A DNA stretch of 48,119 nt from a virus (lineage: Duplodnaviria > Heunggongvirae > Uroviricota > Caudoviricetes): positions 1-48,119 of the IMG/VR virus record IMGVR_UViG_643348551_000006. One strand, 5' to 3'. The notes beneath the pieces were generated by a model that worked only from the letters and a program-made list of their open reading frames with translations, was not told the DNA's origin and did no database searches. This document shows positions 1 to 48,119 of the stretch, piece after piece; the stretch's first letter is position 1; the number at the start of each line of letters is the position of its first letter. Position numbers and translations under genes: made by a program.

Positions 1-1284
1 TTACAGACTTCTGGAAGGTTGCGCAGCTCTTACAACACGCGGTTGATCTTCCGCGGCGTCTTCCAGCGCACTTAAATCACGGTCTTTCACTTCTGGCATT
101 TTCAGCGCAGAGATTAAACCAATCACTGAATATGCCATGATCATAATGGCGATCGGATACCAGGATTCCGTCATGGTGCAGAAAATACCCGCCAGGATAG
201 GACCAAAACCGGAAGCGATAAGACCACCAATTTCTTTAGAAATAGCCATCCGGGTAAAGCGGTTTTTACAGCCGAACATTTCTGCCATGGTAATGTTTTC
301 CAGAGCAAATAATCCCAGCACCGCACAGTTATGAATCACAATCAGTGCAACCATAATGGTGCTCGGGGCATAGCTTTTATCTACGATGATAGAAAGCATT
401 GGCCATGCCAGCACAATCGCGGAGGTATTCATAATAATATACGGGATCCGGCGACCAATTTTATCGGATAACCAACCAAGGAACGGAATGGTCATAAAGC
501 CGAGAATCGAACTGATCATCAATGCATCTGTTGGAATTGCTTTGTTAAACAATAACGTCTGCACTAAATAGCCTGCAAGGAAAGTCTGAATTAAACCTGA
601 GTTACCCGCCTGACCAAAACGCAGCCCTGTTGCCAGCCAGAAGGATTTGCTCTGGAACATGCTACCAGCAGGTGCAGGTTTTGCTGTCGGTTGGTTGCTG
701 TCATTAACCTTCTCAAAGACCGGGCTTTCTTTCAGATTCATACGCAACCAGATAGCAAAGACCATCACGACAACGCTCGCCAGGAACGGTATACGCCATC
801 CCCACGCCAGCAGTTCCTCTTTACTGAGAATGAAGAACATAAAGGCCCAGATTGCCGTTGCGCTCAAGGTTCCGCAGTTAGTTCCCATAGCTACAAATGA
901 GGAGATAATTCCGCGCTTACCTTTTGGCGCATATTCCGCCAGCATCGTACCGGCACCGGAAATTTCCGCACCTGCACCCAACCCCTGAATAATACGCAGC
1001 GTCACCAGCAAGATGGGGGCAAAAACACCAATCTGTGCATAGGTCGGTAACACACCAATTAAGGTGGTACAGATCCCCATCATGGTGATGGTAATAAAGA
1101 GCACTTTTTTACGCCCTATTCTGTCGCCCATTTTGCCGAAAATAAATGCTCCGACAATACGCGCCACATAACCTGCACCGTAGGTTCCCATTGCCAAAAT
1201 TAACGCCATTGCCGTTGATGATTCAGGAAAAAATATTTCATGAAACACTAACGCTGCGCCGAGCGAATATAACTGGAAATCCAT
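1..1284 (-). CDS. ydfJ: MFS-superfamily transporter (metabolite:H+ symporter type), complete 427 aa; host gene flanking the prophage
   Basis: 427-aa ORF with many hydrophobic segments and the MFS loop motif GKMGDRIGRKK. Resembles E. coli YdfJ/ShiA/KgtP-type transporters; the ydfJ symbol is tentative and leans on the known Qin-prophage neighbourhood. Confidence 0.8.
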   Translation of the reverse strand: MDFQLYSLGAALVFHEIFFPESSTAMALILAMGTYGAGYVARIVGAFIFGKMGDRIGRKKVLFITITMMGICTTLIGVLPTYAQIGVFAPILLVTLRIIQGLGAGAEISGAGTMLAEYAPKGKRGIISSFVAMGTNCGTLSATAIWAFMFFILSKEELLAWGWRIPFLASVVVMVFAIWLRMNLKESPVFEKVNDSNQPTAKPAPAGSMFQSKSFWLATGLRFGQAGNSGLIQTFLAGYLVQTLLFNKAIPTDALMISSILGFMTIPFLGWLSDKIGRRIPYIIMNTSAIVLAWPMLSIIVDKSYAPSTIMVALIVIHNCAVLGLFALENITMAEMFGCKNRFTRMAISKEIGGLIASGFGPILAGIFCTMTESWYPIAIMIMAYSVIGLISALKMPEVKDRDLSALEDAAEDQPRVVRAAQPSRSL

Positions 1285-1555: not shown

Positions 1556-1625
1556 TAAAAGCCCGACTGTTGACGCAGCCGGGCTTTCATTTTTCAGATA
1601 CAAAAAAACCGCTCATGGCGGCTTA
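1556..1625. terminator. Back-to-back hairpins with flanking T/A runs between tfa and the host transporter gene (bidirectional terminator candidate)
   Basis: Stem AGCCCG...CGGGCT followed by TTCATTTTT on the plus strand; stem CCGC..GCGG followed by a T-run on the minus strand immediately after the tfa stop. Confidence 0.4.
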
Positions 1626-2202: not shown

Positions 2203-3975
2203 CTAATAAACCCGGATAAATAGACCAATCATGATGCCATCAGAACCCGCACTCCCCAGCCGTGAGCCCGACAACGCCCGGTATGTCCCCGAAAACGCAC
2301 CGCCTGCATACACAGAAATATCGCTGGTTTGTTGAATCGCGGGGTAGTCTGTTATCCCGACACACTTAAACTCAATAATCATAAGACGTGAGCCGGGATA
2401 CAGGTCACCACGATTTATCTGACGATTTGAATCTGAGCTGTAAGTTCCCTTGTACCCCGCCAGTACAAGACTGCCAATACCGTATCCGTCATATGTCGTT
2501 CCGGGGGTAATCCCGGACAGCGTAGCGACAACGGACGACGGCGTGTATTTCAGGGATTCCCACTCCATCAGTTTGCCAGTGGGCGAGTACCAATTCACAT
2601 GAACGCCACCATTAACACCGTAGAAAATAATATTTTTAGGTTGTTTTTCTGCTTCACCACTGGTATCGGCACTCGTCCAGATGACGTCCACAACACCAAT
2701 AAATAGTTCCCCCTCTATTACGACCCCGTTTTCCGGCCTCGTACTCACGGCATAACGTCCGGGGAGAGCGTTTTTTGCCCACGAGAGGAACATTGACCCT
2801 GACTGAAAATACACTCTGTCTTTGACAGTAAATATTTTCCCGAATCCGGACATGCCGGGGACAGCAAGACGACCGTCTGTGCAGTCGTAAATATCTGCCT
2901 GTGGTTCCATCGTGGCCGCGCTTTTTAGCCCCAGATTATCACGTGACTCCTGTTGTGCTTGTTCACCTGCTGCCGCAATCTCTGACAGATTACCGGACGT
3001 TTTCAGGGTGTTCGCCAGCAGGACATCAATGTCGTTTTTTGCCTGCTCAGCTGCGCGGGCATAACCTGCGGCTACCCGTGCGCTCTGTTCAGATGAGGCC
3101 GCGCTTTCCCCCGCACTTTTCACATCTTCCGCAGTGGCCTTTCTGTCACAGGCTGTGGCCGTTGCATCCTGTCTGGCGTTCTCCGCAAAGCGCTCAGCAT
3201 CATCACGTGCTGCTGCGGTTGCCGTCACATCCTGTGCGGTCTGCAGTGTGTTTCCTGCAACATTATCGGCGTGACTTTTCGCGTTTTGCGCACTTCGGGC
3301 TGCATTATCAGCGTGACTTTTTGCGCTCTGTTCGCTTCGGGCAGCGTTATCCGCATTGTTTTTTGATTCCTCTGCGCTGGATGCAGAATCATCTGCTGCC
3401 TGTTGAGCCTGCTTTACTGCATCTGTAACACTCTGCACACCCTGTTGCATCTGTCCAGCATTCTGCTCAACTTCTGCAGCCAGATGTTCAACGTGTTGTT
3501 TATCTTCGGCAACCGCGGTGGCGTTCAGCTGTACGTTATCCGCCAGCGTCTGACAGTCTTCCTTTATCTTCTGCGCATCAGCGACATGTTGCCCGGCCTG
3601 TTGTTCGCTTTCCGCTGCGGATTCGGCGCTCTGCTGCGCCTGTGCCACCATTCTCTCAAAGCGTTTCACCACGTCGGGTTTGAGGTCGCCTTCATCGGGA
3701 GCGGTCAGAAAGTCGTTCAGCGTGCCGGGCTTTGCGTCATCGTATACAGCAATGTCGCCAACACAGTACTCGTCGCGCCAGCCCTGTTTCAGATACACGC
3801 GATATTTTCCGGTCCGGGCCTCAAACGAATACTCCCCGTTATTTCCGGTCACCACATCAGCTTCAGTGCGCATCACCACTTCTGATGTGTTCACCCGGGA
3901 TTTCAGAATAATGTGGCATCCGGACATGGGGATGCCTGCGCCATCAGTCAGCGCACCATAAATTAAAACGGACAT
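2203..3975 (-). CDS. stf: Side tail fibre protein (Stf-like); start placed at internal Met MSVLIYGALTDG
   Basis: N-terminus MSVLIYGALTDGAG...GTLNDFL shared with the upstream fibre and with lambda Stf; repeated ADNAARSxQxAKSH units; C-terminal receptor-binding region of the kind that needs Tfa. Confidence 0.85.
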   Translation of the reverse strand: MSVLIYGALTDGAGIPMSGCHIILKSRVNTSEVVMRTEADVVTGNNGEYSFEARTGKYRVYLKQGWRDEYCVGDIAVYDDAKPGTLNDFLTAPDEGDLKPDVVKRFERMVAQAQQSAESAAESEQQAGQHVADAQKIKEDCQTLADNVQLNATAVAEDKQHVEHLAAEVEQNAGQMQQGVQSVTDAVKQAQQAADDSASSAEESKNNADNAARSEQSAKSHADNAARSAQNAKSHADNVAGNTLQTAQDVTATAAARDDAERFAENARQDATATACDRKATAEDVKSAGESAASSEQSARVAAGYARAAEQAKNDIDVLLANTLKTSGNLSEIAAAGEQAQQESRDNLGLKSAATMEPQADIYDCTDGRLAVPGMSGFGKIFTVKDRVYFQSGSMFLSWAKNALPGRYAVSTRPENGVVIEGELFIGVVDVIWTSADTSGEAEKQPKNIIFYGVNGGVHVNWYSPTGKLMEWESLKYTPSSVVATLSGITPGTTYDGYGIGSLVLAGYKGTYSSDSNRQINRGDLYPGSRLMIIEFKCVGITDYPAIQQTSDISVYAGGAFSGTYRALSGSRLGSAGSDGIMIGLFIRVY

Positions 3976-4254
3976 ATTTTTCTCGCGATAAATTAAATCA
4001 GGAAGATGCTTCCGGAAGCGCAGGTCATTCAATATCCGGCGCGGTCGATGTATCAACACGGTTCAGCAACACCCGATACTTCTTCCGGACTGAAAGCAAT
4101 GATGCCTGTTCCTGTGTTGCATTTACATCTCACCTTTTCACCCGCGATTAACCAACAGCCAGACTTAACAGACATGCTACAACCGGCATCGCAAAATCCA
4201 TAAGGCTTCTAACACCCCATACGCACGGATCAAAACCACCCTGCCACGGCATAT

Positions 4255-4428
4255 TCATACGCTTGCCATGCCCGAACGTTTCAAGCCAGCGTTCTTCTGC
4301 CAGGGGGCACTCACAACGAAGAACGTACAACCGACTATCGCACCGTAAACCCAGCTTCCGGTAAAAAGACCAACCAGTATCTGCGCAGCCACATCACAAA
4401 GCACATGAAGGAAAAGTGTTATATCCAT
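4255..4428 (-). CDS. Small hydrophobic ORF (57 aa) between the two fibre genes; may continue by frameshift into the 4148..4330 frame
   Basis: ATG directly after the fibre stop, preceded by AAGGGGGGG; translation MDITLFLHVLCDVAAQILVGLFTGSWVYGAIVGCTFFVV... The overlapping 60-aa track ORF in another frame suggests a frameshifted or decayed gene. Confidence 0.25.
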   Translation of the reverse strand: MDITLFLHVLCDVAAQILVGLFTGSWVYGAIVGCTFFVVSAPWQKNAGLKRSGMASV

Positions 4429-4438
4429 TATCCCCCCC

Positions 4439-7267
4439 TTATCCGATATCGCTTCGGGAAGTTGATAACAACTTTAATTCTGACTCAAGTTCATCAACTC
4501 TTTTTGTCAGTTTCTGAATATGGTGAATAAGCGGAACAACCAGACGATCATACATCACACCTTCAGCAACCATCCCATTATCAGACGCTATACCTGGATC
4601 ATCTTTGTCTGTAAGAGGACGCCAGTGAACATATTGCGGTGCTATCTCTCCGACTTCTTCTGCAATAAGGCCATAATGTCCCCAGTCCTTTCTGTCCCTT
4701 TCACAAGTCGAGCGATACCATACAGGACGAAGTTTCAACAGCTCATCCGCGTACTTGTCCTCTAAAGACTCGATATCCGTCTTGTATCGACGGGATGAAG
4801 TCGAACGAAAAACCATGTTGTAGCCAGCAATCGGACTTACGAACATGTTAGGACTATCGGTTGTTGTCTGAATGTCGAATATTTGCAAACAATAACAAGT
4901 TAACGTCTGGAAGTTTGCATCTAACGAGCCAGCTTCAAGTCTTGACGATGTGAGAAAATTCCTGTTTAAATTGTTAATCTCCGATATGCTGTAAGTTCCT
5001 ATCTCAAGTGGTGTCGGCAGGTTTTTAGTGTTGTACTGCCTGCGCCAGCCTGGCGAATAACCATCCCCATTGTAAACGTAAATAAATTCGGCGTTTACTT
5101 TTGCACCGGAAACGCTGGTAGTCGTTGCGGTGGTGATCCTGATTGTGTAGTTAGTCATGCCAAAGCTGGTTATTTCAATCAGTGCGCCAGCAAGCGGAAT
5201 AGTGCCGCATTTTGTTTCGCTATCCGGTATTGAGGCGTTATTAGCATAAGCCCACGAACAGCGAGCAATCCATGTACGCTGATTGAATGCGCCGTTATTT
5301 TGCAGCAGTGTAATAAATGACGATGTGGATAACGATTGTCCTGAATCGCCAGTATTCAGCCATGCCTGAGACGAAGCAGCAGCGCCGATGTTACCAGGCG
5401 TTAGAGTTATATCTTTCGTGCCGTCAAAAGCCACATTGTTAATGCTTCTCGCTGTCTGCAATTTGGTGGCGGTTGCCGCGTTCCCCTTCAGTGCCCCGGT
5501 GATCCCGCCAGTAACAGACAACGGACCTGAAATAGTCCCTCCAGTTGTTGGCAGTGCTCCAATATCTGATGGTGTAGGTTTCTGATGTGAGCTAAACATC
5601 GTATAAACAACACCATCGGTAACGCCGGAAGGCTTACTCGCTGAATATGCTGGCGAGGTATAAACAGAAACTGACGCATTTGCAGTGCAATCCCAATGGA
5701 TATTTACACTCGTCGCATAATTGCCAATCTCAACGTAAATATCATATGTATCGCCGGATGTGTTGATCCAGGCGAAATTTGTTAATCCTGCGCCTGTTCT
5801 TTTCCACAAAGCTCCAGTAATCCCTTTGGGATTTCCATTGCCTGCTCGCAAAACCAGTTCTGAAATGCCTGCCTGCTGTGGGGAGCCGACGTTGTAACCA
5901 GCGCCACCAATCAATGTGATGTAAACGATGGAACTCGCTTGTGGCATGGTAACCGTAGCCAGTTTGAACCACCCTGCCCCGCCAGAGAAAGACATCGTTA
6001 CTGAATTGAAAGTGCCAATATCTTTCGGCGTTAATGTTATATCCGCTGTCAGTGCTTTCCCGTTAACTTTTCGGTTAGATGGTACCCTGCCATTCGCATT
6101 GTCATTCGCTGCTTTAACTGCCTTCGGTGTCGCGGCAAGCGTTTCAGATGTACTGTTGGTTGCACTACTGAGCTGAACGATCCCCTTTTTCGTCGTGCTC
6201 GCATCCTCAAGCCCCACGGCGGATGCAATATCCTCCGCCCGTTTTGCTGCTGTCTCGGCGCGCGTTGCTGCAGATTCCGCCTTACTTTTGCTCTGAGCTG
6301 CCGCTGTCGCACTGCCAGCAGCCTCTGTCGCCTTCGTGGATGCCGTCGTGGCACTTCCCTTCGCTGCTGACGCCTGTTTAGTTGCCTCATCTTTTGAAGC
6401 AGACGCCGATGAGGCCGATGACGCCGCCGAACTGGCGGACGATGCGGCAGCCGTTTTTGAGGATTCTGCGCTGGTTTCCGACGCTTTCGCGTTCGTTTCG
6501 GATGTCTTCGCTGCGGAAGCTGACCTCGCTGCTGCGCTGGCCTGTTCAGTGGCTTCGCCAGCCTTCGTTGTGGCTGTTGAAGCGGACGAGGCAGCGCTTT
6601 CTGCCGATTTTCCGGCGGCGGTGGCACTGGCTGAGGCCTGCCCGGCACTTGTTGACGCGGCACCGGCACTGGTGGCAGCCGCGCTTTTTGAAGACTCTGC
6701 AGCGGCAGCACTTTTTGATGCTTCAGTGGCCTTTGTTGATGCCGTTCCTGCGCTGGAAGATGCTGACTGAGCAGATGATGCAGCCTGTCCGGCTGACGTG
6801 CTGGCGGCACGTGCTGAGCCTGCAGCATCGGTTGCATGAGTTGCCGCCTCGCTGGCTGATGCACTGGCATCACTGGCTGACTTCTTCGCGGCTGCCGTGT
6901 TCTGTGCCACTGCGGACGCGTTACGCGCCACCTCTTCCACCATCAGTTCAAAACGGCGCAGTGCCTCCGGACGGGCATCATCCTCCGTCATGGCACCGAG
7001 AAAATCATTCAGCGTACCGGGTCGGGAATCTTCATGCACGGTGATGGTCCCGGCATGTGACGGCGGGAATCCCACCACCAACAGAATAACGCTGTACTGA
7101 CCGTACTCAACGTCCATGCTGTAACGCCCGGCTTCATCCGGATTTTCTGAGGCCACTGTGTTCACCACCACCGTGGTGCTGTTACGTTTTGCTTTCAGCT
7201 GGATTGTGCAGTTCTGTATCGGTTTACCTGCACCGTCTTTCAGTACACCTGAAATCTTTACTGCCAT
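4439..7267 (-). CDS. Second side tail fibre protein with Ala/Ser-rich repetitive shaft and C-terminal self-cleaving intramolecular chaperone (peptidase S74-like) domain; start at MAVKISGVLKDG
   Basis: N-terminal Stf-type anchor (MAVKISGVLKDGAG...GTLNDFLGAMTEDD); long low-complexity A/S/T region; C-terminus ...RRYKTDIESLEDKYADELLKLRPVWYR...GLIAEEV...VVPLIHHIQKL typical of endosialidase-type chaperone domains. Confidence 0.85.
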   Translation of the reverse strand: MAVKISGVLKDGAGKPIQNCTIQLKAKRNSTTVVVNTVASENPDEAGRYSMDVEYGQYSVILLVVGFPPSHAGTITVHEDSRPGTLNDFLGAMTEDDARPEALRRFELMVEEVARNASAVAQNTAAAKKSASDASASASEAATHATDAAGSARAASTSAGQAASSAQSASSSAGTASTKATEASKSAAAAESSKSAAATSAGAASTSAGQASASATAAGKSAESAASSASTATTKAGEATEQASAAARSASAAKTSETNAKASETSAESSKTAAASSASSAASSASSASASKDEATKQASAAKGSATTASTKATEAAGSATAAAQSKSKAESAATRAETAAKRAEDIASAVGLEDASTTKKGIVQLSSATNSTSETLAATPKAVKAANDNANGRVPSNRKVNGKALTADITLTPKDIGTFNSVTMSFSGGAGWFKLATVTMPQASSIVYITLIGGAGYNVGSPQQAGISELVLRAGNGNPKGITGALWKRTGAGLTNFAWINTSGDTYDIYVEIGNYATSVNIHWDCTANASVSVYTSPAYSASKPSGVTDGVVYTMFSSHQKPTPSDIGALPTTGGTISGPLSVTGGITGALKGNAATATKLQTARSINNVAFDGTKDITLTPGNIGAAASSQAWLNTGDSGQSLSTSSFITLLQNNGAFNQRTWIARCSWAYANNASIPDSETKCGTIPLAGALIEITSFGMTNYTIRITTATTTSVSGAKVNAEFIYVYNGDGYSPGWRRQYNTKNLPTPLEIGTYSISEINNLNRNFLTSSRLEAGSLDANFQTLTCYCLQIFDIQTTTDSPNMFVSPIAGYNMVFRSTSSRRYKTDIESLEDKYADELLKLRPVWYRSTCERDRKDWGHYGLIAEEVGEIAPQYVHWRPLTDKDDPGIASDNGMVAEGVMYDRLVVPLIHHIQKLTKRVDELESELKLLSTSRSDIG

Positions 7268-7331: not shown

Positions 7332-7931
7332 TCAGAATTTATAACCGACACCCACGATGAAACCGTCAGTACGCCAGTCGCCACTGCCGGAACCTTCATA
7401 AGCAATATCAATGGCCACGGATTCTGTCGGGTTAAACTGCACGCCAGCTCCCCACGCCAGAGACGTGTTGCTGTGGCGACCGTCATCACTTCCGGTCAGC
7501 ACATCGTGCGTTTTCCCCTTGTTGTCAGTTACGCGGAGATAATCCCCGGAGAAAGTCGACACACGGCTGTAAGCCATACCCGCCATCGCATACGCGCTGA
7601 ACCATTCATTCACGCGCACAGACGGCCCCGCCATCACGCTGAACCAGCGGTTACGCACGGAATCCTCATGCCAGCGGGTATCGCTGTAATGCGTTTTTTG
7701 CTCATCTTCAGCGTTGGCATAACTGAATGACGTAATCAGCCCCAGCGTGTCCGTAAACTCATAACGGTATTTCACGTTAATGCCCTTCAGGTCATCGCTG
7801 CCTGGCATATCAGTATGGGTCTGAAGATACCCGGCGCTTAGTGTGGACTGATGCTCTGCTGCAATCGCTGGCGTACCAGCGGCGACCAGCCAGACTACTG
7901 CAGACAGAATAACAGCACATAATTTACGCAT
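7332..7931 (-). CDS. lom: Outer-membrane protein Lom (Ail/Lom family), with signal peptide
   Basis: 199 aa; signal peptide MRKLCAVILSAVVWLVAAGTPAIA; beta-barrel ending GVGYKF; sits between J and the fibre genes as in lambda. Confidence 0.9.
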   Translation of the reverse strand: MRKLCAVILSAVVWLVAAGTPAIAAEHQSTLSAGYLQTHTDMPGSDDLKGINVKYRYEFTDTLGLITSFSYANAEDEQKTHYSDTRWHEDSVRNRWFSVMAGPSVRVNEWFSAYAMAGMAYSRVSTFSGDYLRVTDNKGKTHDVLTGSDDGRHSNTSLAWGAGVQFNPTESVAIDIAYEGSGSGDWRTDGFIVGVGYKF

Positions 7932-7998: not shown

Positions 7999-10900
7999 TC
8001 AACTGATACTGATGCCTGCAGTGGCTTTCTTCATCACCACAACCAGCAAATCGCTGATACTTGCTGTGGGATACCAGTTATTTACCAGCCATGCTGACAC
8101 CGAAAACTCCAGTGTCATGTGACCGTGACCGGCAGGCATATCAATAACACCACTGTAAATCAGCGTATTATCCAGCGCGGTACGGTTATAAATTTCAGCA
8201 CCGTTTTTCCGTACTATCAGGCGGCATGACGAATAAATATCGTTATTCTCCCGCTCATGTTTAGCGCCGCTGAATGCCACCGCCGGAATAACAATCTGCC
8301 GGTCAAACGGCTGATCGTCATAAACCCTGACGGTGATGGTCCCTGATGGCCACCGTTCCGGTGCACGGGAGTCCCGGGGGAAAGCTTTGCCCACTGTTTT
8401 AACGAGATCGCCTTCAATCTGGTTGGCGGACAGTTTTCCCAGAACCCGACAGTTCTCGTTAATCGTGACGTTGTTGAGCGTCCCGGAGTTCGCATTCACG
8501 TTACCGCTGATATCGGCATTTTTCGCCGTCAGCCGCCCGTCCGGTGTCAGGGAAAATACCGGAGGATTACCGCCGCTGGTAATGGTGGGAGCCGTCAGGC
8601 GTTTCAGGAACACTTCGTTCATGAATATCTGATCGCCCTGCCCAACAAACATCGGCTTTGTGTTGCCATTCGCAGGATTAATCATCGCAATCCTGTCTGC
8701 CGCCAGCAGCACCTGACTCTGCATGCCGTCAGGGGTGTTCTCAATACCGGCACCAATACCCGCGATATAAAGGCGTCCGTCCTGCATCTGCTGCAGCTTC
8801 ACAGCCCACATGCTGTTCAGGTTATTATTTGTATCAACCTGAATCTTCTGTATCTGCTGAATTGCCGCACTCTGGTCTTCCAGTTTCTTATTGACGGTCT
8901 GCGTGATTTCATTGCTGACATCCGTAATGGACGTCCTGATTTCAGCCAGGTCAGGCGCAAGCTGACCGTTATCAATCTGCGTCCACAGCTCCTGAGCCAG
9001 ATGGGTTTTCCCTATCTCGCCTTTGAAAAAATCCAGATAACCGGATGCATCATCACTCGGCTGACCAACAGCCTCCACGAATGCCGATTTGCCAACGGTG
9101 TTCACACTGCGGATATAAAAGTAATAATCATGGCCCGGTTTGATATTGAGACTGGCGGCTATCCAGTACAGCGCCGTGCCAAGATAGCGTGCTGTGGTTT
9201 CAACCTGCCTGATATCGGTAATCCGCTTTTCCGAGAACCAGAACTCAAACTGTACCGTCGGGTCATAAACGGCAAGATGCGGCGTGGCGGTTATCTGAAA
9301 ATAGCCCGGCGTCAGCTCAATCCGCGACGGTGCTGCCGGTGCGGCAATCCGGAACGATACCGACGCCGGATCGCCCTGCTGCCCCCGGGCATTTACCGCC
9401 CGGACTGTCAGCCTGTAGTTCCCCAGCGCCAGTTGCGTGAAGCGGTATGTGGTTTCCGTCGTCCGGGCCGTGCTGACCAGCCGCTCACTGCTGTCATCCG
9501 CTGTTACGGTCAGGCGAAGCAGGAAGCTCACGCCCTTCACCACCTTCGGCGTGTCCCAGCGGGCCAGCACCTGGTATTCCCCGCTGTCTGCGGTGACTTC
9601 TGCGGTCAGGTGCTGCACCGCTGGCGGCGTGACACCATTTACCGTGCCGCTCTGGTCGCCGTCAAAGTGCGCCCCGTTATCCACGATGGCCTCTTTTTCC
9701 GGTACATGCTGCACGGCGGTGATGGCATACGTGCCGTCGTCGTTCTCACGGATACTCACGCAGCGGAACAGGCGCTGGCGCAGCGTCGGCAGCTTCAGCC
9801 CCCACACGCTGTATCCGGCAACGCCGTCAGGAACACGGCTCACTTTTACCTTCACGCCGTCGGTGACGGACTGGACCTCCACGCTGACCGGATTGCCACT
9901 TCCGTCAACCAGGCTTATCAGCGTGGTGCCGGAGGATGGCAGCGTGATTTCACGGTCGAGCGTCAGCGTCCGGGTCTGGCTGTTCACCGCCAGCACGCGC
10001 CCACCGGTGCTGATACCCGCATAGTCATCATCACAGATTTCAATGACATCGCCCGGCACATGGCGAAGCCCTTCTGCGCCCACGCTGAAGTCCACGGTCT
10101 GCGTTTCCAGCAGCTCTGTTTTAATCAGCCACAGCCCGGCGCGGTGTGCCTGCCCCCGGCTGGTACAGCCAAAAGCATCCATCTTCGTGACATTACGACC
10201 GTAACGGGCAATGGCCTGCGTATCCTCCACAAGCTCTGTCGCCGTCTCCCAGCCGTTGTTCGGGTCAATCCAGTTCACCTCAACGGCATTATGGCGGTCT
10301 TTCAGGGCGCTAAAGCTGTAGCGGAACGGCGCGCCATCATCCGGCATCACCACATTACTGCGGTTATAGGTCCACACCTTATCCGACGGTCGGTCCTGCA
10401 CGAACGTCAGCGTCTGCCCGTTCCATACCGGCATACAGCGCATCGCCGAGCAGAAATCACTGAGCACATCCCACGCCTTACGCTGTGTGGTCAGCCAGGC
10501 ATTACAGGTGATGCGCGGCTCCGTGCCGCCAAAGCCGTCCGGCACTGACTGGTCGCAATGCTGGCCGATGACATACAGCGCCCATTTATCCACATCCGCC
10601 GCACCAAGACGTTTCCCCATGCCGTAGCGCGGATGGGTCAGCATATCCCACAGACACCAGGCCATGTTGTTGCTGTATGCTGGCTTAAACGTTCCGTCCC
10701 AGATACCGCTGTATTGCCGCGTCTGCGGGTTATAGTTCGACGGCACCTGCAGAATGCGCCCGCGCAGATGATAATTACGGCTCACCTGCTGGCTGCCGAA
10801 CTGCTCCGAATCCACCTGCACGCCGACCAGTGCCGTGTTCGGGTAGCACTGTTTCACATCGATGATTTCGGTGTATGACGACCAGAGCGTTTTGTTCTGC

Positions 10901-11478
10901 AGCTGGTCTGTGGTGCTGTCCGGCGTCATCCTGCGCATCCGTATATTGAACGGGCGCGGCGGCAGGTTACCCACCACCACCGAGGCCAGATACTGCGAGG
11001 TGGTTTTGCCCTTAATGGTGATGTCTTTTTCCGTCACCCAGCCACCATTACGCTGGATCTGAACCAGCAGGCGGACTTCCGACGGATTCCGGTCCCCCTT
11101 TGAGGTGGTTTCCACCAGTGCCTGCACACCGAAGGTAAAGCGCAGTCGGTCGATGTTTGCCGACGTGATGGTGCGGGTGATCGGCGTGTCGTATTTCACT
11201 TCCGTACCCAGCACCGTCTCGGAGCCGGAGGATTCAAAGCCCTCCGGCGGTGTCTGCTCCTGCTCACCGGCCCGGAACACCACCGTGACGCCGGATATAT
11301 TGGTATTCCCCTCACTGTCCAGCACCGGCGTACTGTTCAGCAGCACGCTTTTTAATCCATCCACCGGACCTTCAACCGGCCCTTCGCTGATGGCATCGAT
11401 CACACTCAGCAGCTGCGTGGACTTCAGGTTGTCCTTCGCTTCGCGCGGGGTATGCCCCTTACTGCCGCCTTTACCCAT
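7999..11478 (-). CDS. J: Tail tip / host specificity protein J
   Basis: 1159 aa, N-terminus [34 protein letters not shown] matches lambda gpJ nearly residue for residue; C-terminal receptor-binding part diverges. Confidence 0.95.
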
Positions 11479-11538
11479 TCGTCATGCTCCATAAACGATA
11501 AAACCGCCCGGAGGCGGTTTCACATAAAACATTTTGCA

Positions 11539-12210
11539 TCAGCGACCAATCACCACAACCTGACCACCGTCCCCTTCGTCTGCCGTGCTGATCTCCTGAG
11601 AAACCACGCGTGACCCCACGCGCATTTCCCCGTACAGAACAGGCAGAACATTGCCCTGGGCAACCATGTTATCCAGTGAGGAGAAATAGGTGTTCTGCTT
11701 ACCGTTATCCGTTGTCTGTGTACGGGGAGTTCTGGCTTTCGGTGCCAGCATCTGCGCCACACCACCGAGCACCATACTGGCACCGAGAGAAAACAGGATG
11801 CCGGTCATACCACCGGCCCCAATGGCTGCCCCCCATGCTGCAAGGGTGGCTCCGGCAGTAAAGAATGATCCGGCAATGGCGGCAGCTCCCAGGACAATCT
11901 GGAATACGCCACCTGACTTGGCCCCGGCGACTCTGGGAACAATATGAATCACAGCGCCATCAGGCAGAGTCTCATGTAACTGCGCCGTTAACCCGGACGT
12001 GCTGACGTCCCGCCCGGCAATCCGTACCTGATACCAGCCGTCGCACAGTTTCTGACGAAACGCCGGGAGCTGTGTGGCCAGTGCCCGGATGGCTTCAGCC
12101 CCCGTTTTCACACGAAGGTCGATGCGGCGGCCAAATCGTTGTAAATCCCCGTAAAGGCAGATGCGCGCCATGCCCGGTGACGCCAGAGGGAGTGTGTGCG
12201 TCGCTGCCAT
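11539..12210 (-). CDS. I: Tail assembly protein I
   Basis: 223 aa MAATHTLPLASPGMARICLYGDLQRFGRRIDL..., same length and sequence as lambda gpI. Confidence 0.9.
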   Translation of the reverse strand: MAATHTLPLASPGMARICLYGDLQRFGRRIDLRVKTGAEAIRALATQLPAFRQKLCDGWYQVRIAGRDVSTSGLTAQLHETLPDGAVIHIVPRVAGAKSGGVFQIVLGAAAIAGSFFTAGATLAAWGAAIGAGGMTGILFSLGASMVLGGVAQMLAPKARTPRTQTTDNGKQNTYFSSLDNMVAQGNVLPVLYGEMRVGSRVVSQEISTADEGDGGQVVVIGR

Positions 12211-12851
12211 TTGTCGGTATACCTCTCTCGTTTGCTCAGTTGTTCAGGAATATGGTGCAGCAGCTCGCCGTCACCGCAGTAAATAGCGGCATGATTCGGC
12301 ACCGATGAACCAAAGCAGCACAGCAGCACATCGCCCGGCTGCGCCTCTGTCAGTGCGACACGGTAAAAACCAGTCGCCTCCATATTGTCAAGATAGAGAT
12401 TCTGACCGTTACGCCACCAGTCATCCTCACGATAAAAGTCCGGCATCTCAATCCCCGCCAGATGATAAGCATCCCGGAACAGTGTGTAACAGTCCGTCAC
12501 ACCGTGCTCAAAGCGCCGCCCGGTGAGATGCGGCACACAGCGGAACTTATGAATCGTCCCCCGGCAGACCAGCCACCACGGCAAATCACTCTGCACTTGC
12601 AGCCGCCGGTCGGCCTCACTCAGCCAGGGCAGACCACCGGGGTGGCTGTGGACCAGCGCCACAATCTCACCCTGCATTTCTGCCTGCAGCCAGTCTTCCG
12701 GCGACATACGGAAATACGCCTCCGGCTCACCGGAGATATTCACGCAGGGAAAATATCTTTCCCCCTCCGGCGTGCTTACCACGAAGCCGCACGACTCCGC
12801 TGGCGCACATCGCCGGGCGTGCGCCAGAATCGCTGATTCTGTCTGTGTCAT
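12108..12851 (-). CDS. K: Tail assembly protein K (NlpC/P60 and JAB/MPN-like domains); 3' end overlaps I
   Basis: MTQTESAILAHARRCAPAESCGFVV...HSHPGG (JAB-type metal site) ... C-terminal NlpC/P60-like region; lambda gpK homologue. Coordinates as in the ORF track; true stop or overlap with I not verified. Confidence 0.8.
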   Translation of the reverse strand: MTQTESAILAHARRCAPAESCGFVVSTPEGERYFPCVNISGEPEAYFRMSPEDWLQAEMQGEIVALVHSHPGGLPWLSEADRRLQVQSDLPWWLVCRGTIHKFRCVPHLTGRRFEHGVTDCYTLFRDAYHLAGIEMPDFYREDDWWRNGQNLYLDNMEATGFYRVALTEAQPGDVLLCCFGSSVPNHAAIYCGDGELLHHIPEQLSKRERYTDKWQRRTHSLWRHRAWRASAFTGIYNDLAAASTFV

Positions 12852-46804: not shown

Positions 46805-46838
46805 CTAAAAACAATACTAACCAATGAGAGAAGCTAAA

Positions 46839-48119
46839 ATGAAATATCCGACAGGCGTGGAAAACCATGGAGGGAAATTACGTATCTGGTTTGTTTATAA
46901 AGGTGTAAGAGTCAGGGAAAATCTGGGGGTTCCTGACACGACAAAAAACAGGCGCATTGCAGGTGAGCTGCGCGCCTCTGTTTGTTATGCAATAAAAACC
47001 GGCGTTTTCGACTATGCAAAACAGTTTCCCTCCTCACACAATCTGGAAAAATTTGGTGAGGCCCGACAAGATTTAACCATAAAGGAACTGGCTGAAAAAT
47101 TTCTGGCACTGAAAGAAACGGAAGTCGCAAAAACGTCACTCAACACGTACCGTGCCGTCATCAAAAATATTCTGAGCATAATCGGTGAAAAAAATCTTGC
47201 CTCGTCGATTAATAAAGAAAAATTGCTGGCGGTACGTAAAGAGTTACTTACTGGTTACCAGATCCCCAAAAGTAATTATATTGTTACGCAACCGGGGAGA
47301 TCGGCTGTCACCGTAAATAATTACATGACAAATCTTTACGCCGTGTTCCAGTTTGGTGTTGATAACGGTTACCTGGCAGATAATCCGTTTAAGGGGATCT
47401 CGCCATTAAAGGAATCAAGAACCATTCCTGATCCTCTTTCACGGGAGGAATTTATCCGTCTTATCGACGCCTGCAGAAATCAGCAGGCCAAAAATTTATG
47501 GTGTGTTTCTGTTTATACAGGCATTCGCCCTGGTGAACTGTGTGCGCTTGGGTGGGAGGACATAGATCTGAAAAATGGAACAATGATGATCAGGAGAAAT
47601 TTAGCAAAAGATCGTTTTACGGTACCGAAAACACAGGCTGGTACCAATCGGGTAATTTACCTTATCAAGCCTGCAATCGACGCTCTCAGGAGTCAGATGA
47701 CACTAACGAGGCTGAGCAAAGAACATATTATTGACGTTCACCTCAGAGAGTTCGGCAGAACAGAAAAACAAAAATGCACCTTTGTTTTTCAACCTGAAGT
47801 GTCAGCGAGAGTAAAAAATTATGGTGACCATTTTACCGTTGACTCAATAAGGCAGATGTGGGACGCAGCGATAAAACGTGCCGGACTCCGCCACCGCAAA
47901 TCATATCAGTCGAGACATACTTATGCCTGCTGGTCGCTGACAGCCGGTGCCAACCCGGCATTCATAGCAAACCAGATGGGACATGCAGATGCGCAAATGG
48001 TGTTTCAGGTATACGGGAAATGGATGTCTGAAAACAATAATGCACAGGTAGCCCTGCTAAATACACAGCTAAGCGAGTTTGCCCCAACCATGCCCCAAAA
48101 CGAGGTGGCGCAAAATTAA
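46839..48119 (+). CDS. int: Tyrosine-recombinase integrase; start at MKYPTGVENHGG (track ORF begins 46824); stop is the last codon of the window
   Basis: N-terminal arm-binding-type domain (KLRIWFVYKGVRVRENLG), catalytic region ...R...HxxR...Y with ...SRHTYACWSL...; full length. Confidence 0.85.
   Translation: MKYPTGVENHGGKLRIWFVYKGVRVRENLGVPDTTKNRRIAGELRASVCYAIKTGVFDYAKQFPSSHNLEKFGEARQDLTIKELAEKFLALKETEVAKTSLNTYRAVIKNILSIIGEKNLASSINKEKLLAVRKELLTGYQIPKSNYIVTQPGRSAVTVNNYMTNLYAVFQFGVDNGYLADNPFKGISPLKESRTIPDPLSREEFIRLIDACRNQQAKNLWCVSVYTGIRPGELCALGWEDIDLKNGTMMIRRNLAKDRFTVPKTQAGTNRVIYLIKPAIDALRSQMTLTRLSKEHIIDVHLREFGRTEKQKCTFVFQPEVSARVKNYGDHFTVDSIRQMWDAAIKRAGLRHRKSYQSRHTYACWSLTAGANPAFIANQMGHADAQMVFQVYGKWMSENNNAQVALLNTQLSEFAPTMPQNEVAQN

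Follow-up and report, generated by a model that had tools for sequence, protein, structure and literature searches.

The 48,119 nucleotides (nt) of DNA studied here (IMG/VR virus record IMGVR_UViG_643348551_000006; hereafter the window, which means the full stretch) are nearly exactly one complete lambda-like Escherichia coli prophage in ydfJ, the Qin site. Downstream of J and lom, the window carries two tandem side tail fibre genes, here called fibre 1 and fibre 2. We interpret this region, with moderate confidence, as a mosaic double fibre module in which fibre 2 would be a passenger that was acquired recently and mounts poorly or not at all. The anchor subtype of fibre 2 is unmatched to the collar site of lambda, and poor or absent mounting is therefore to be expected. 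A preliminary description of the region had reported two fibre genes behind J and lom, and both proved to be undisrupted. The order on the minus strand is J, lom, fibre 1, a split small gene, a remnant of tfa, fibre 2, a DUF4376 gene and ydfJ. The small gene and the tfa remnant between the two fibres were both missing from the preliminary description. The fibre genes and their anchors are located as follows (all coordinates refer to the window unless another locus is named):

4439-7267, minus strand: fibre 1, a lambda-type side tail fibre of 942 amino acids (aa) from ATG; uninterrupted open reading frame (ORF).
6866-7267, minus strand: anchor of fibre 1 (residues 1-134), lambda StfN collar-domain type; PF08400, E 4e-70.
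2203-3975, minus strand: fibre 2, a PF08400-anchored fibre of 590 aa, add-on type; uninterrupted ORF.
3574-3975, minus strand: anchor of fibre 2 (residues 1-134), contractile-tail add-on subtype; PF08400, E 3e-58.

In both fibres, the PF08400 match spans the full profile (positions 1-134 of 134). The motifs M-x-V-x-I-x-G-x-L-x-DGAG and GTLNDFL, which had been quoted earlier as common to the two proteins, are present in both, and both anchors keep the invariant core residues of the PF08400 family and the LNDFL helix. The statement that the two fibres share the same anchor thus holds at the level of the Pfam family. It fails at a finer level, where the anchors differ in sequence, subtype, genomic company and docking loop. 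Calculated over the first 100 residues, as were all anchor identities, the anchor of fibre 1 is 91% identical to that of lambda Stf. The anchor of fibre 2 is 42% identical to those of lambda Stf or fibre 1, 86-87% identical to those of phiP27 L56, Rac-SA53 tail3 and the ETEC4090 prophage, and 75% identical to that of the P2-like prophage STEC313. Compared by sequence with the Ur-lambda Stf chain 9e7m_Ta, fibre 1 gave an E-value of 7e-50 and fibre 2 one of 1.8e-14.

In the Ur-lambda structure published in 2025, four trimers contribute twelve StfN domains to a closed collar of 12 subunits where gpV and gpM meet, and the beta4-beta5 loop of StfN contacts V E63 and M K2, W6 and R80 (PMC12617516). 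The gpM of the window is identical to that of lambda at 109 of 109 positions and its gpV at 240 of 246 (97.6%), and V E63 and M K2, W6 and R80 are all retained. Because the anchor of fibre 1 resembles that of lambda Stf and gpV and gpM are nearly those of lambda, we strongly infer that fibre 1 docks at the V/M collar as lambda Stf does.

An AlphaFold2 (AF2) model of the fibre 1 anchor places strands at residues 2-8, 20-27, 35-41, 48-54, 56-64 and 70-77, and a helix at residues 85-92. It thereby recovers the collar-domain fold of Ur-lambda, a sheet of six strands with one helix. In Foldseek, its top match was 9e7m_Ta, with template modelling (TM) scores of 0.73/0.80, and the collar spike gp40 of Vibrio phage XM1 (7kjk) reached a TM score of 0.68. 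The model predicts the beta4-beta5 turn at residues 54-56. Fibre 2, which was compared by sequence only, reads EARTGKY across this loop, against DVEYGQY in both lambda and fibre 1. Only two of the seven residues are identical, and the replacements of Glu by Arg and of Gln by Lys amount to a charge reversal. At positions where the fibre 2 anchor differs from phiP27, a comparison by eye found convergence to the lambda residue in one of 14 cases. Docking of fibre 2 at the lambda V/M site is doubtful.

The genomic company of fibre 2 also differs from that of fibre 1. Its distal region and the gene downstream of it are located as follows:

2206-2940, minus strand: predicted distal receptor-binding region of fibre 2 (residues 346-590).
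1630-2193/2202, minus strand: DUF4376 gene, 187 aa from the ATG at 2193 (190 aa from the GTG at 2202); PF14301.

Over its full length, fibre 2 is 57% identical to a fibre of the P2-like prophage STEC313, and over its first 239 residues it has 66% identity to phiP27 L56. The tip is 34-51% identical to E. coli fibres with either a PF08400 or a P2-H-type PF12571 N-terminus, and 34% identical to a fibre of phage Av-05. A search of the tip against 5.8 billion proteins, used mainly for alignment building, gave a top identity of 51% and did not return fibre 2 itself.

The DUF4376 gene starts 9 nt past the stop codon of fibre 2. Its product matches PF14301 over residues 74-177 (62 bits against a cut-off of 25) and is 74-84% identical to the products encoded downstream of all fibre-2-type fibres compared. 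It matched neither PF02413 (Caudo_TAP) nor, in BLASTP, lambda Tfa; phiP27 L55, taken as the positive control, matched PF02413 with an E-value of 6.5e-22. The preliminary description had given fibre 2 a classical Stf C-terminus served by Tfa, and this assignment has to be abandoned, as fibre 2 lacks similarity to lambda orf-314 and its helper belongs to DUF4376. In Alteromonas phage V22 (gp27) and Campylobacter CJIE1 (H-fibre helper), experiments have shown that DUF4376 proteins act as chaperones without which the fibre is not functional. Since these chaperones are encoded downstream of fibre genes, the idea of a separate chaperone survives, with a different family in this role, and by analogy the DUF4376 protein is the probable folding helper of fibre 2.

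The same combination of fibre and DUF4376 gene occurs widely. At their ends, phiP27 and Rac-SA53 carry a primary fibre with tfa, followed by a PF08400 fibre and a gene of 187-188 aa, beside attR, and the same cassette was found in two E. coli prophages, one P2-like and one Rac-like. When IMG/VR was scanned with the anchor of fibre 2, 80 loci at 74-91% identity were returned. Upstream of the fibre, 72 of these 80 loci had baseplate, sheath or P2-H-type fibre genes, five had tfa only, and three were lambdoid, with a lambda-type Stf first. Among the fibre-2-type ORFs that were not cut by a contig end, 59 of 68 were at least 421 aa long, and the add-on fibres ranged from 421 to 1047 aa. The add-on cassette loci comprise L022-L101 from IMG/VR together with L005, L006, L018 and L019, and the pairing of fibre and DUF4376 gene recurs in loci where downstream sequence was available. 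Hence, contractile-tailed enterobacterial prophages commonly carry, at their right end, a PF08400 fibre with a DUF4376 gene as an additional cassette.

Lambdoid phages use this anchor subtype differently. Where a DUF4376 cassette supplies the sole Stf of a lambdoid prophage, its anchor belongs to a third subtype or to the lambda type, and no lambdoid locus among those surveyed had the fibre 2 anchor subtype as its sole Stf. In the converse scan, none of the best 80 loci with a lambda-type anchor contained an intact second anchor. A scan of genome contigs gave nine loci in two genomes, in which the anchor subtype tracked the tail type. In L088, an Ur-lambda-like contig, a Stf ORF of 776 aa and an intact tfa are followed by an add-on fibre with an anchor of the P2-like subtype; this contig shows the predicted intermediate. 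In the lambdoid lineage of L090 and L101, the fibre-2-type gene is split. L088, L090/L101 and the window together imply that lambdoid phages acquired such cassettes at least three times.

One further candidate for a double fibre, the viral contig L133, was rejected. It has a truncated third-subtype anchor fragment of 122 aa (5969-6337 of that locus) upstream of a complete lambda-type Stf (9373-12462), in a rearranged region with duplicated J and lom fragments.

The sequence between the two fibre genes records how the cassette arrived. Three features were distinguished:

3976-4033, minus strand: recombination junction and phiP27-type intergenic leader of fibre 2, with the crossover at the conserved ...IEWP codons.
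4020-4124, minus strand: 3' remnant of a classical lambda-type tfa, 105 base pairs (bp), with 82% DNA identity to the 3' end of lambda tfa.
4148-4428, minus strand: small membrane-protein gene of the phrog_1443 family, frameshifted in a C5 run near 4302 and present as split ORFs.

In a tblastn comparison, the tfa remnant corresponds to residues 156-191 of lambda Tfa with 78% identity, and it reads TGA where lambda has Trp. From 4033 to 3850, the window has 87% DNA identity to the 3' end of phiP27 L55, the following intergenic region and the 5' end of L56. The lambda-type and phiP27-type stretches overlap at ATTGAATG(G/A)CC, that is, at the conserved ATTGAATGGCC (...IEWP) codons. The remnant marks the crossover with a phiP27-type cassette and the later deletion of the remaining tfa, and a crossover in the conserved 3' codons of tfa explains the import of the fibre 2 cassette. 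The chimeric junction was found in three of 5,426 complete E. coli genomes and is 100% identical among them. These are the same three genomes that have the whole arrangement, two of them at ydfJ and one beside uspF.

The two ORFs of the split small gene match positions 1-39 and 41-89 of a single profile of 97 positions. The run of C residues has five in the window against six in two relatives with an intact ORF of 93 aa, which corresponds to the loss of one base. Small proteins of the phrog_1443 family have 93-97 aa and two or three hydrophobic segments. The product is 74% identical to a 97-aa membrane protein of PhiR55_1 that is encoded after an S74-bearing gene, and the small gene therefore seems to travel with that fibre tip.

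Fibre 1 is itself composite, and its parts are located as follows:

6218-6865, minus strand: Ala/Ser/Thr-rich shaft (residues 135-350), 75% A+S+T.
4997-5407, minus strand: domain resembling Mu S/S' and P1 S (residues 621-757), matching the Mu fibre 8ju3 and P1.
4442-4798, minus strand: C-terminal Peptidase_S74 intramolecular chaperone domain (residues 824-942); PF13884.

The Ala/Ser/Thr-rich shaft and the S74 domain had both been recognised in the preliminary description, and both are borne out. The shaft is homologous to the proximal coiled coil of lambda Stf, and residues 1-394 are 68% identical to lambda orf-401 (Stf). Residues 621-757 match the Mu fibre 8ju3 with a domain E-value of 3e-30 and show 65% identity to the P1 tail fibre. 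Residues 757-942 share 57% identity with the product of a separate gene of 227 aa in the lambdoid phage PhiR55_1, and they also match fibre tips of T1-like phages annotated as 'chaperone of endosialidase'. In PhiR55_1 (L182, 8218-8901), the tip and S74 domain form this separate gene downstream of stf, and here they are fused into fibre 1; the tip/S74 module thus occurs both split and fused. Neither fibre significantly matched lambda orf-314, the gp37-like half of Stf, in BLASTP (best E 1.2).

PF13884 matches residues 824-880 of 942 with 35.8 bits, against a gathering cut-off of 22. The motif SSRRYK begins at residue 824 and provides a Ser824/Lys829 pair, with the same Ser-x4-Lys spacing as the endosialidase pair S911/K916. 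S-S-R-R-Y-K aligns with S-D-E-R-H-K of the GA-1 gp12 appendage (3gud) and also with the DT57C fibre (8hqz). Cleavage is predicted before Ser824, with Lys829 as its partner. Each fibre cassette would accordingly bring its own folding aid, an intramolecular S74 domain in fibre 1 and a separate downstream chaperone-type gene for fibre 2, and the different folding strategies proposed earlier for the two proteins are upheld in this form.

Long ORFs on both strands were also noticed inside the Ala/Ser/Thr-rich part of fibre 1 between 5742 and 7044 (e.g. 6049-6873, 274 aa; 6382-7044, 220 aa). They are most simply by-products of GC-rich repetitive codon usage, like orf206b in lambda stf.

These observations establish the double cassette, with two predicted folding routes, and its history of recombination, and the module would have been built through at least two recombination events. 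Fibre 1 would be the resident side fibre, with an anchor and proximal shaft from lambda Stf, a Mu/P1-like distal domain and a tip as in T1-like and PhiR55-like phages. It would mount as four trimers in a 12-subunit collar at the V/M junction, and its tip would fold with the help of the S74 domain, which would then remove itself by self-cleavage before Ser824. Fibre 2 and the DUF4376 gene would have come as a self-contained add-on cassette from contractile-tailed prophages (phiP27-, Rac-SA53- or P2-like), joining a lambda-type stf-tfa module via a crossover in the last conserved tfa codons. A later exchange would have replaced the old Stf tip and most of tfa by the S74-type tip and the small membrane-protein gene. 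Fibre 1 would then be the working side fibre, and fibre 2 would serve mainly as raw material for fibre swapping rather than as a stable second set. The earlier suggestion of a swappable cassette agrees with the mapped recombination junction and with the presence of the same fibre 2 cassette in many unrelated prophages.

Both cassettes appear capable of expression. In L001 and L004, the fibre 1 ORF is intact (942-949 aa), with 8-9 substitutions and one in-frame insertion of seven codons. The ratio of nonsynonymous to synonymous differences (pN/pS) of fibre 1 against three E. coli relatives was 0.09-0.13, on 21-31 synonymous changes. For fibre 2, two of three comparisons gave a low pN/pS and that with strain A30 gave 0.77, with only 1-6 synonymous changes, too few to judge. 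The search for terminators between fibre 1 and fibre 2 found none of a strength comparable to the following hairpins:

7980-7961 and 7305-7284, minus strand: terminator-like hairpins flanking lom, each followed by a T-run.
1556-1624, minus strand: two terminator-like hairpins ending the fibre operon, with G+C-rich stems of 14 and 7 bp, each followed by a T-run.

As both cassettes thus lie in one terminator-free stretch of the late operon, both fibre proteins are probably made.

Several observations weigh against fibre 2 being a mere passenger. The argument from the docking loop is based on the AF2 secondary structure, with a predicted local distance difference test score (pLDDT) of 75, and on the contacts described in one paper. 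The lambdoid acquisitions, at least three in number, involve two anchor subtypes, and the cassette could be useful on lambda-type tails. The anchor clade has remained 74-91% conserved over contractile-tail lineages whose sheath and baseplate genes are far more divergent, which hints at a permissive docking mode that might tolerate lambda. Moreover, each of the four genomes in the lineage, across two chromosomal sites, retains an intact fibre 2 and an intact helper gene, and the low pN/pS of fibre 2 in two of the three comparisons points the same way, on few changes.

These points bear on the alternative of a true dual-fibre virion, put forward in the preliminary description, in which trimers of both fibres would compete or mix in the gpV/gpM collar, giving two receptor specificities and a broader host range. 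We consider this possible, although rather unlikely. The common PF08400 fold family with its invariant core residues and LNDFL helix is consistent with a shared site, as is the match of fibre 2 to lambda StfN (E 1.8e-14). Each cassette is complete, a single transcription unit covers the two, four genomes have retained the arrangement, with two integration sites among them, lambdoid phages acquired such cassettes repeatedly, and DT57C offers an example of a siphophage with two lateral-fibre proteins. A shared site is difficult to reconcile with anchors that are only 42% identical and with a predicted docking loop that is unconserved and reversed in charge. It also has to contend with the fibre 2 subtype never being the sole Stf in the lambdoid loci surveyed, with the broken second gene in the L090/L101 lineage, and with the rarity of the junction among the complete genomes.

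That fibre 2 forms a collar of its own elsewhere on the particle, for instance at the neck as in XM1, appears improbable. The cassette would in that case be portable and independent of tail type. The two solved relatives of the anchor fold do dock differently, with the V/M junction used by Ur-lambda Stf and the neck by XM1 gp40, and fibre 2 (residues 1-194) matches XM1 gp40 by sequence (E 2.5e-6), whereas fibre 1 does not. Furthermore, in phages already equipped with baseplate fibres, the cassette invariably comes as an addition after the primary fibre and tfa. However, the sequence of fibre 2 is nearer to lambda StfN than to XM1 gp40, no sequence relationship links the neck proteins of lambda to those of the donor myoviruses, and the anchor subtypes follow the tail lineage, a pattern that speaks for partners specific to each lineage. 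If two docking levels did exist, the cassette would hop between contractile and non-contractile phages via recombination at the conserved 3' end of tfa, and particles would carry fibres at two levels with two receptor specificities.

It is very improbable, and largely refuted, that one of the fibre genes is dead or stems from a neighbouring prophage remnant: the cassette does lie at the extreme edge of the prophage, adjoining a host gene, and two neighbouring genes (the small membrane-protein gene and tfa) are damaged, but the fibre 1 ORF is uninterrupted in the window, L001 and L004 with a pN/pS of about 0.1, and a leftover of a neighbouring prophage is ruled out by a junction inside tfa rather than at an att site and by the occurrence of the two-fibre block at both ydfJ and uspF, which means that the block travels with the phage. 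The reading of fibre 1 as a pseudogene derives from the RefSeq Prokaryotic Genome Annotation Pipeline (PGAP), which gives it as partial or pseudo pieces in three relatives (in L001, 8773-9969 and 7141-8649). It was rejected, as the translation is intact in L001 and L004 and only L002 has a deletion, of 305 bp at the very 3' end of the gene. The splitting looks like an annotation artefact of a mosaic gene.

Comparison with known systems places the passenger interpretation in context. The Stf/Tfa system of Ur-lambda (9E7M/9MGH; PMC12617516) likewise has its fibre gene after J and lom, and its PF08400 fold is common to both fibres of the window. Lambda has one stf with a Caudo_TAP Tfa, whereas the window retains tfa as a 105-bp remnant, and lambda Stf ends in a gp37-like tip where fibre 1 ends in an S74 domain. 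The window adds a second fibre, whose anchor is 42% identical, whose tip is different and whose helper belongs to DUF4376.

The cassettes of phiP27 (L56/L57), Rac-SA53 (tail3/tail4) and the P2-like prophage are the closest counterparts of fibre 2 and its helper. Their DUF4376 genes are 80-84% identical to that of the window, they too are situated at the right prophage end after a primary fibre and tfa, and they have the same intergenic leader (87% DNA identity). In contrast, these phages have contractile tails with baseplates, while in the window the cassette comes after a lambda-type Stf in a phage with a lambda tail, and the identity between the distal receptor-binding parts is no more than 30-57%. 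V22 gp27 and the CJIE1 helper also have a C-terminal DUF4376 domain and are encoded immediately downstream of a fibre, but they have no close sequence relation to the protein of the window and their fibres use other N-terminal anchors.

Fibre 1 shares with the S74 fibres (K1F endosialidase, T5 pb1, DT57C LtfA/B and GA-1 gp12) the C-terminal S74 domain and the Ser-x4-Lys pair at the predicted cleavage site, and it differs from them in that its S74 module is fused to the proximal half of lambda Stf. The T5-like phages DT57C and DT571/2 are siphophages with tandem genes for two lateral-fibre proteins, LtfA and LtfB, of different specificity. In DT57C, LtfB is a branch on LtfA, and anchoring falls to a separate collar protein, whereas the fibres of the window each carry a tail-anchor domain and would therefore compete or dock separately. 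The PF08400 anchor of fibre 2 argues against a DT57C-type branch off fibre 1. XM1 gp40 (7KJK) has the same N-terminal fold and is a trimeric fibre that rings a tubular part of the virion. It differs in its position at the neck of a myovirus, with six trimers, and is only distantly related (19% identity).

Precedents exist for tail-fibre mosaicism, for S74 tips, for DUF4376 helpers and for phages that have two fibre proteins. The combination on a lambda tail, a rare fibre-gene mosaic, and the wider pattern of add-on cassettes are new, and our literature searches returned nothing relevant on PF08400 add-on fibres or on a double Stf in lambdoid phages. Side fibres set the adsorption speed and strain range of lambda-like phages, and engineered lambda particles with swapped Stf tips have already been used for delivery into gut E. 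coli. The prophage offers a natural test case in which a second, divergent anchor is present in the same cell, with exclusion, mixing or a second collar as possible outcomes. The crossover mapped to the last tfa codons is a concrete example of the movement of fibre cassettes between phage types. If fibre 2 is not mounted, the locus would be an ordinary by-product of fibre mosaicism.

The fibre module is flanked by the following genes:

7999-11478, minus strand: gpJ central tail fibre, ORF of 1159 aa, 83% identical to lambda J over its full length.
7332-7931, minus strand: lom, Ail/Lom outer-membrane protein; PF06316, E 7e-129.
1-1284, minus strand: host ydfJ, its 5' end lost to the prophage (Qin integration site), 100% identical to E. 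coli ydfJ.

In the annotation of the relatives, ydfJ is likewise truncated at the N-terminus. An integrase was found at 46824-48119, together with a RecE-like gene, a cI-like repressor and Q. From Nu1 to J, each lambda head and tail protein has a near-full-length counterpart in the window, and from FII to I the identity to lambda is 85-100% (85% for G and at least 96% for the rest). An NCBIfam search gave no match for any of the four proteins searched. Compared with two relatives, lom has 93% DNA identity and a pS of 0.15, while the neighbouring fibre genes have 98-100%, which suggests a separate recombinational exchange of lom.

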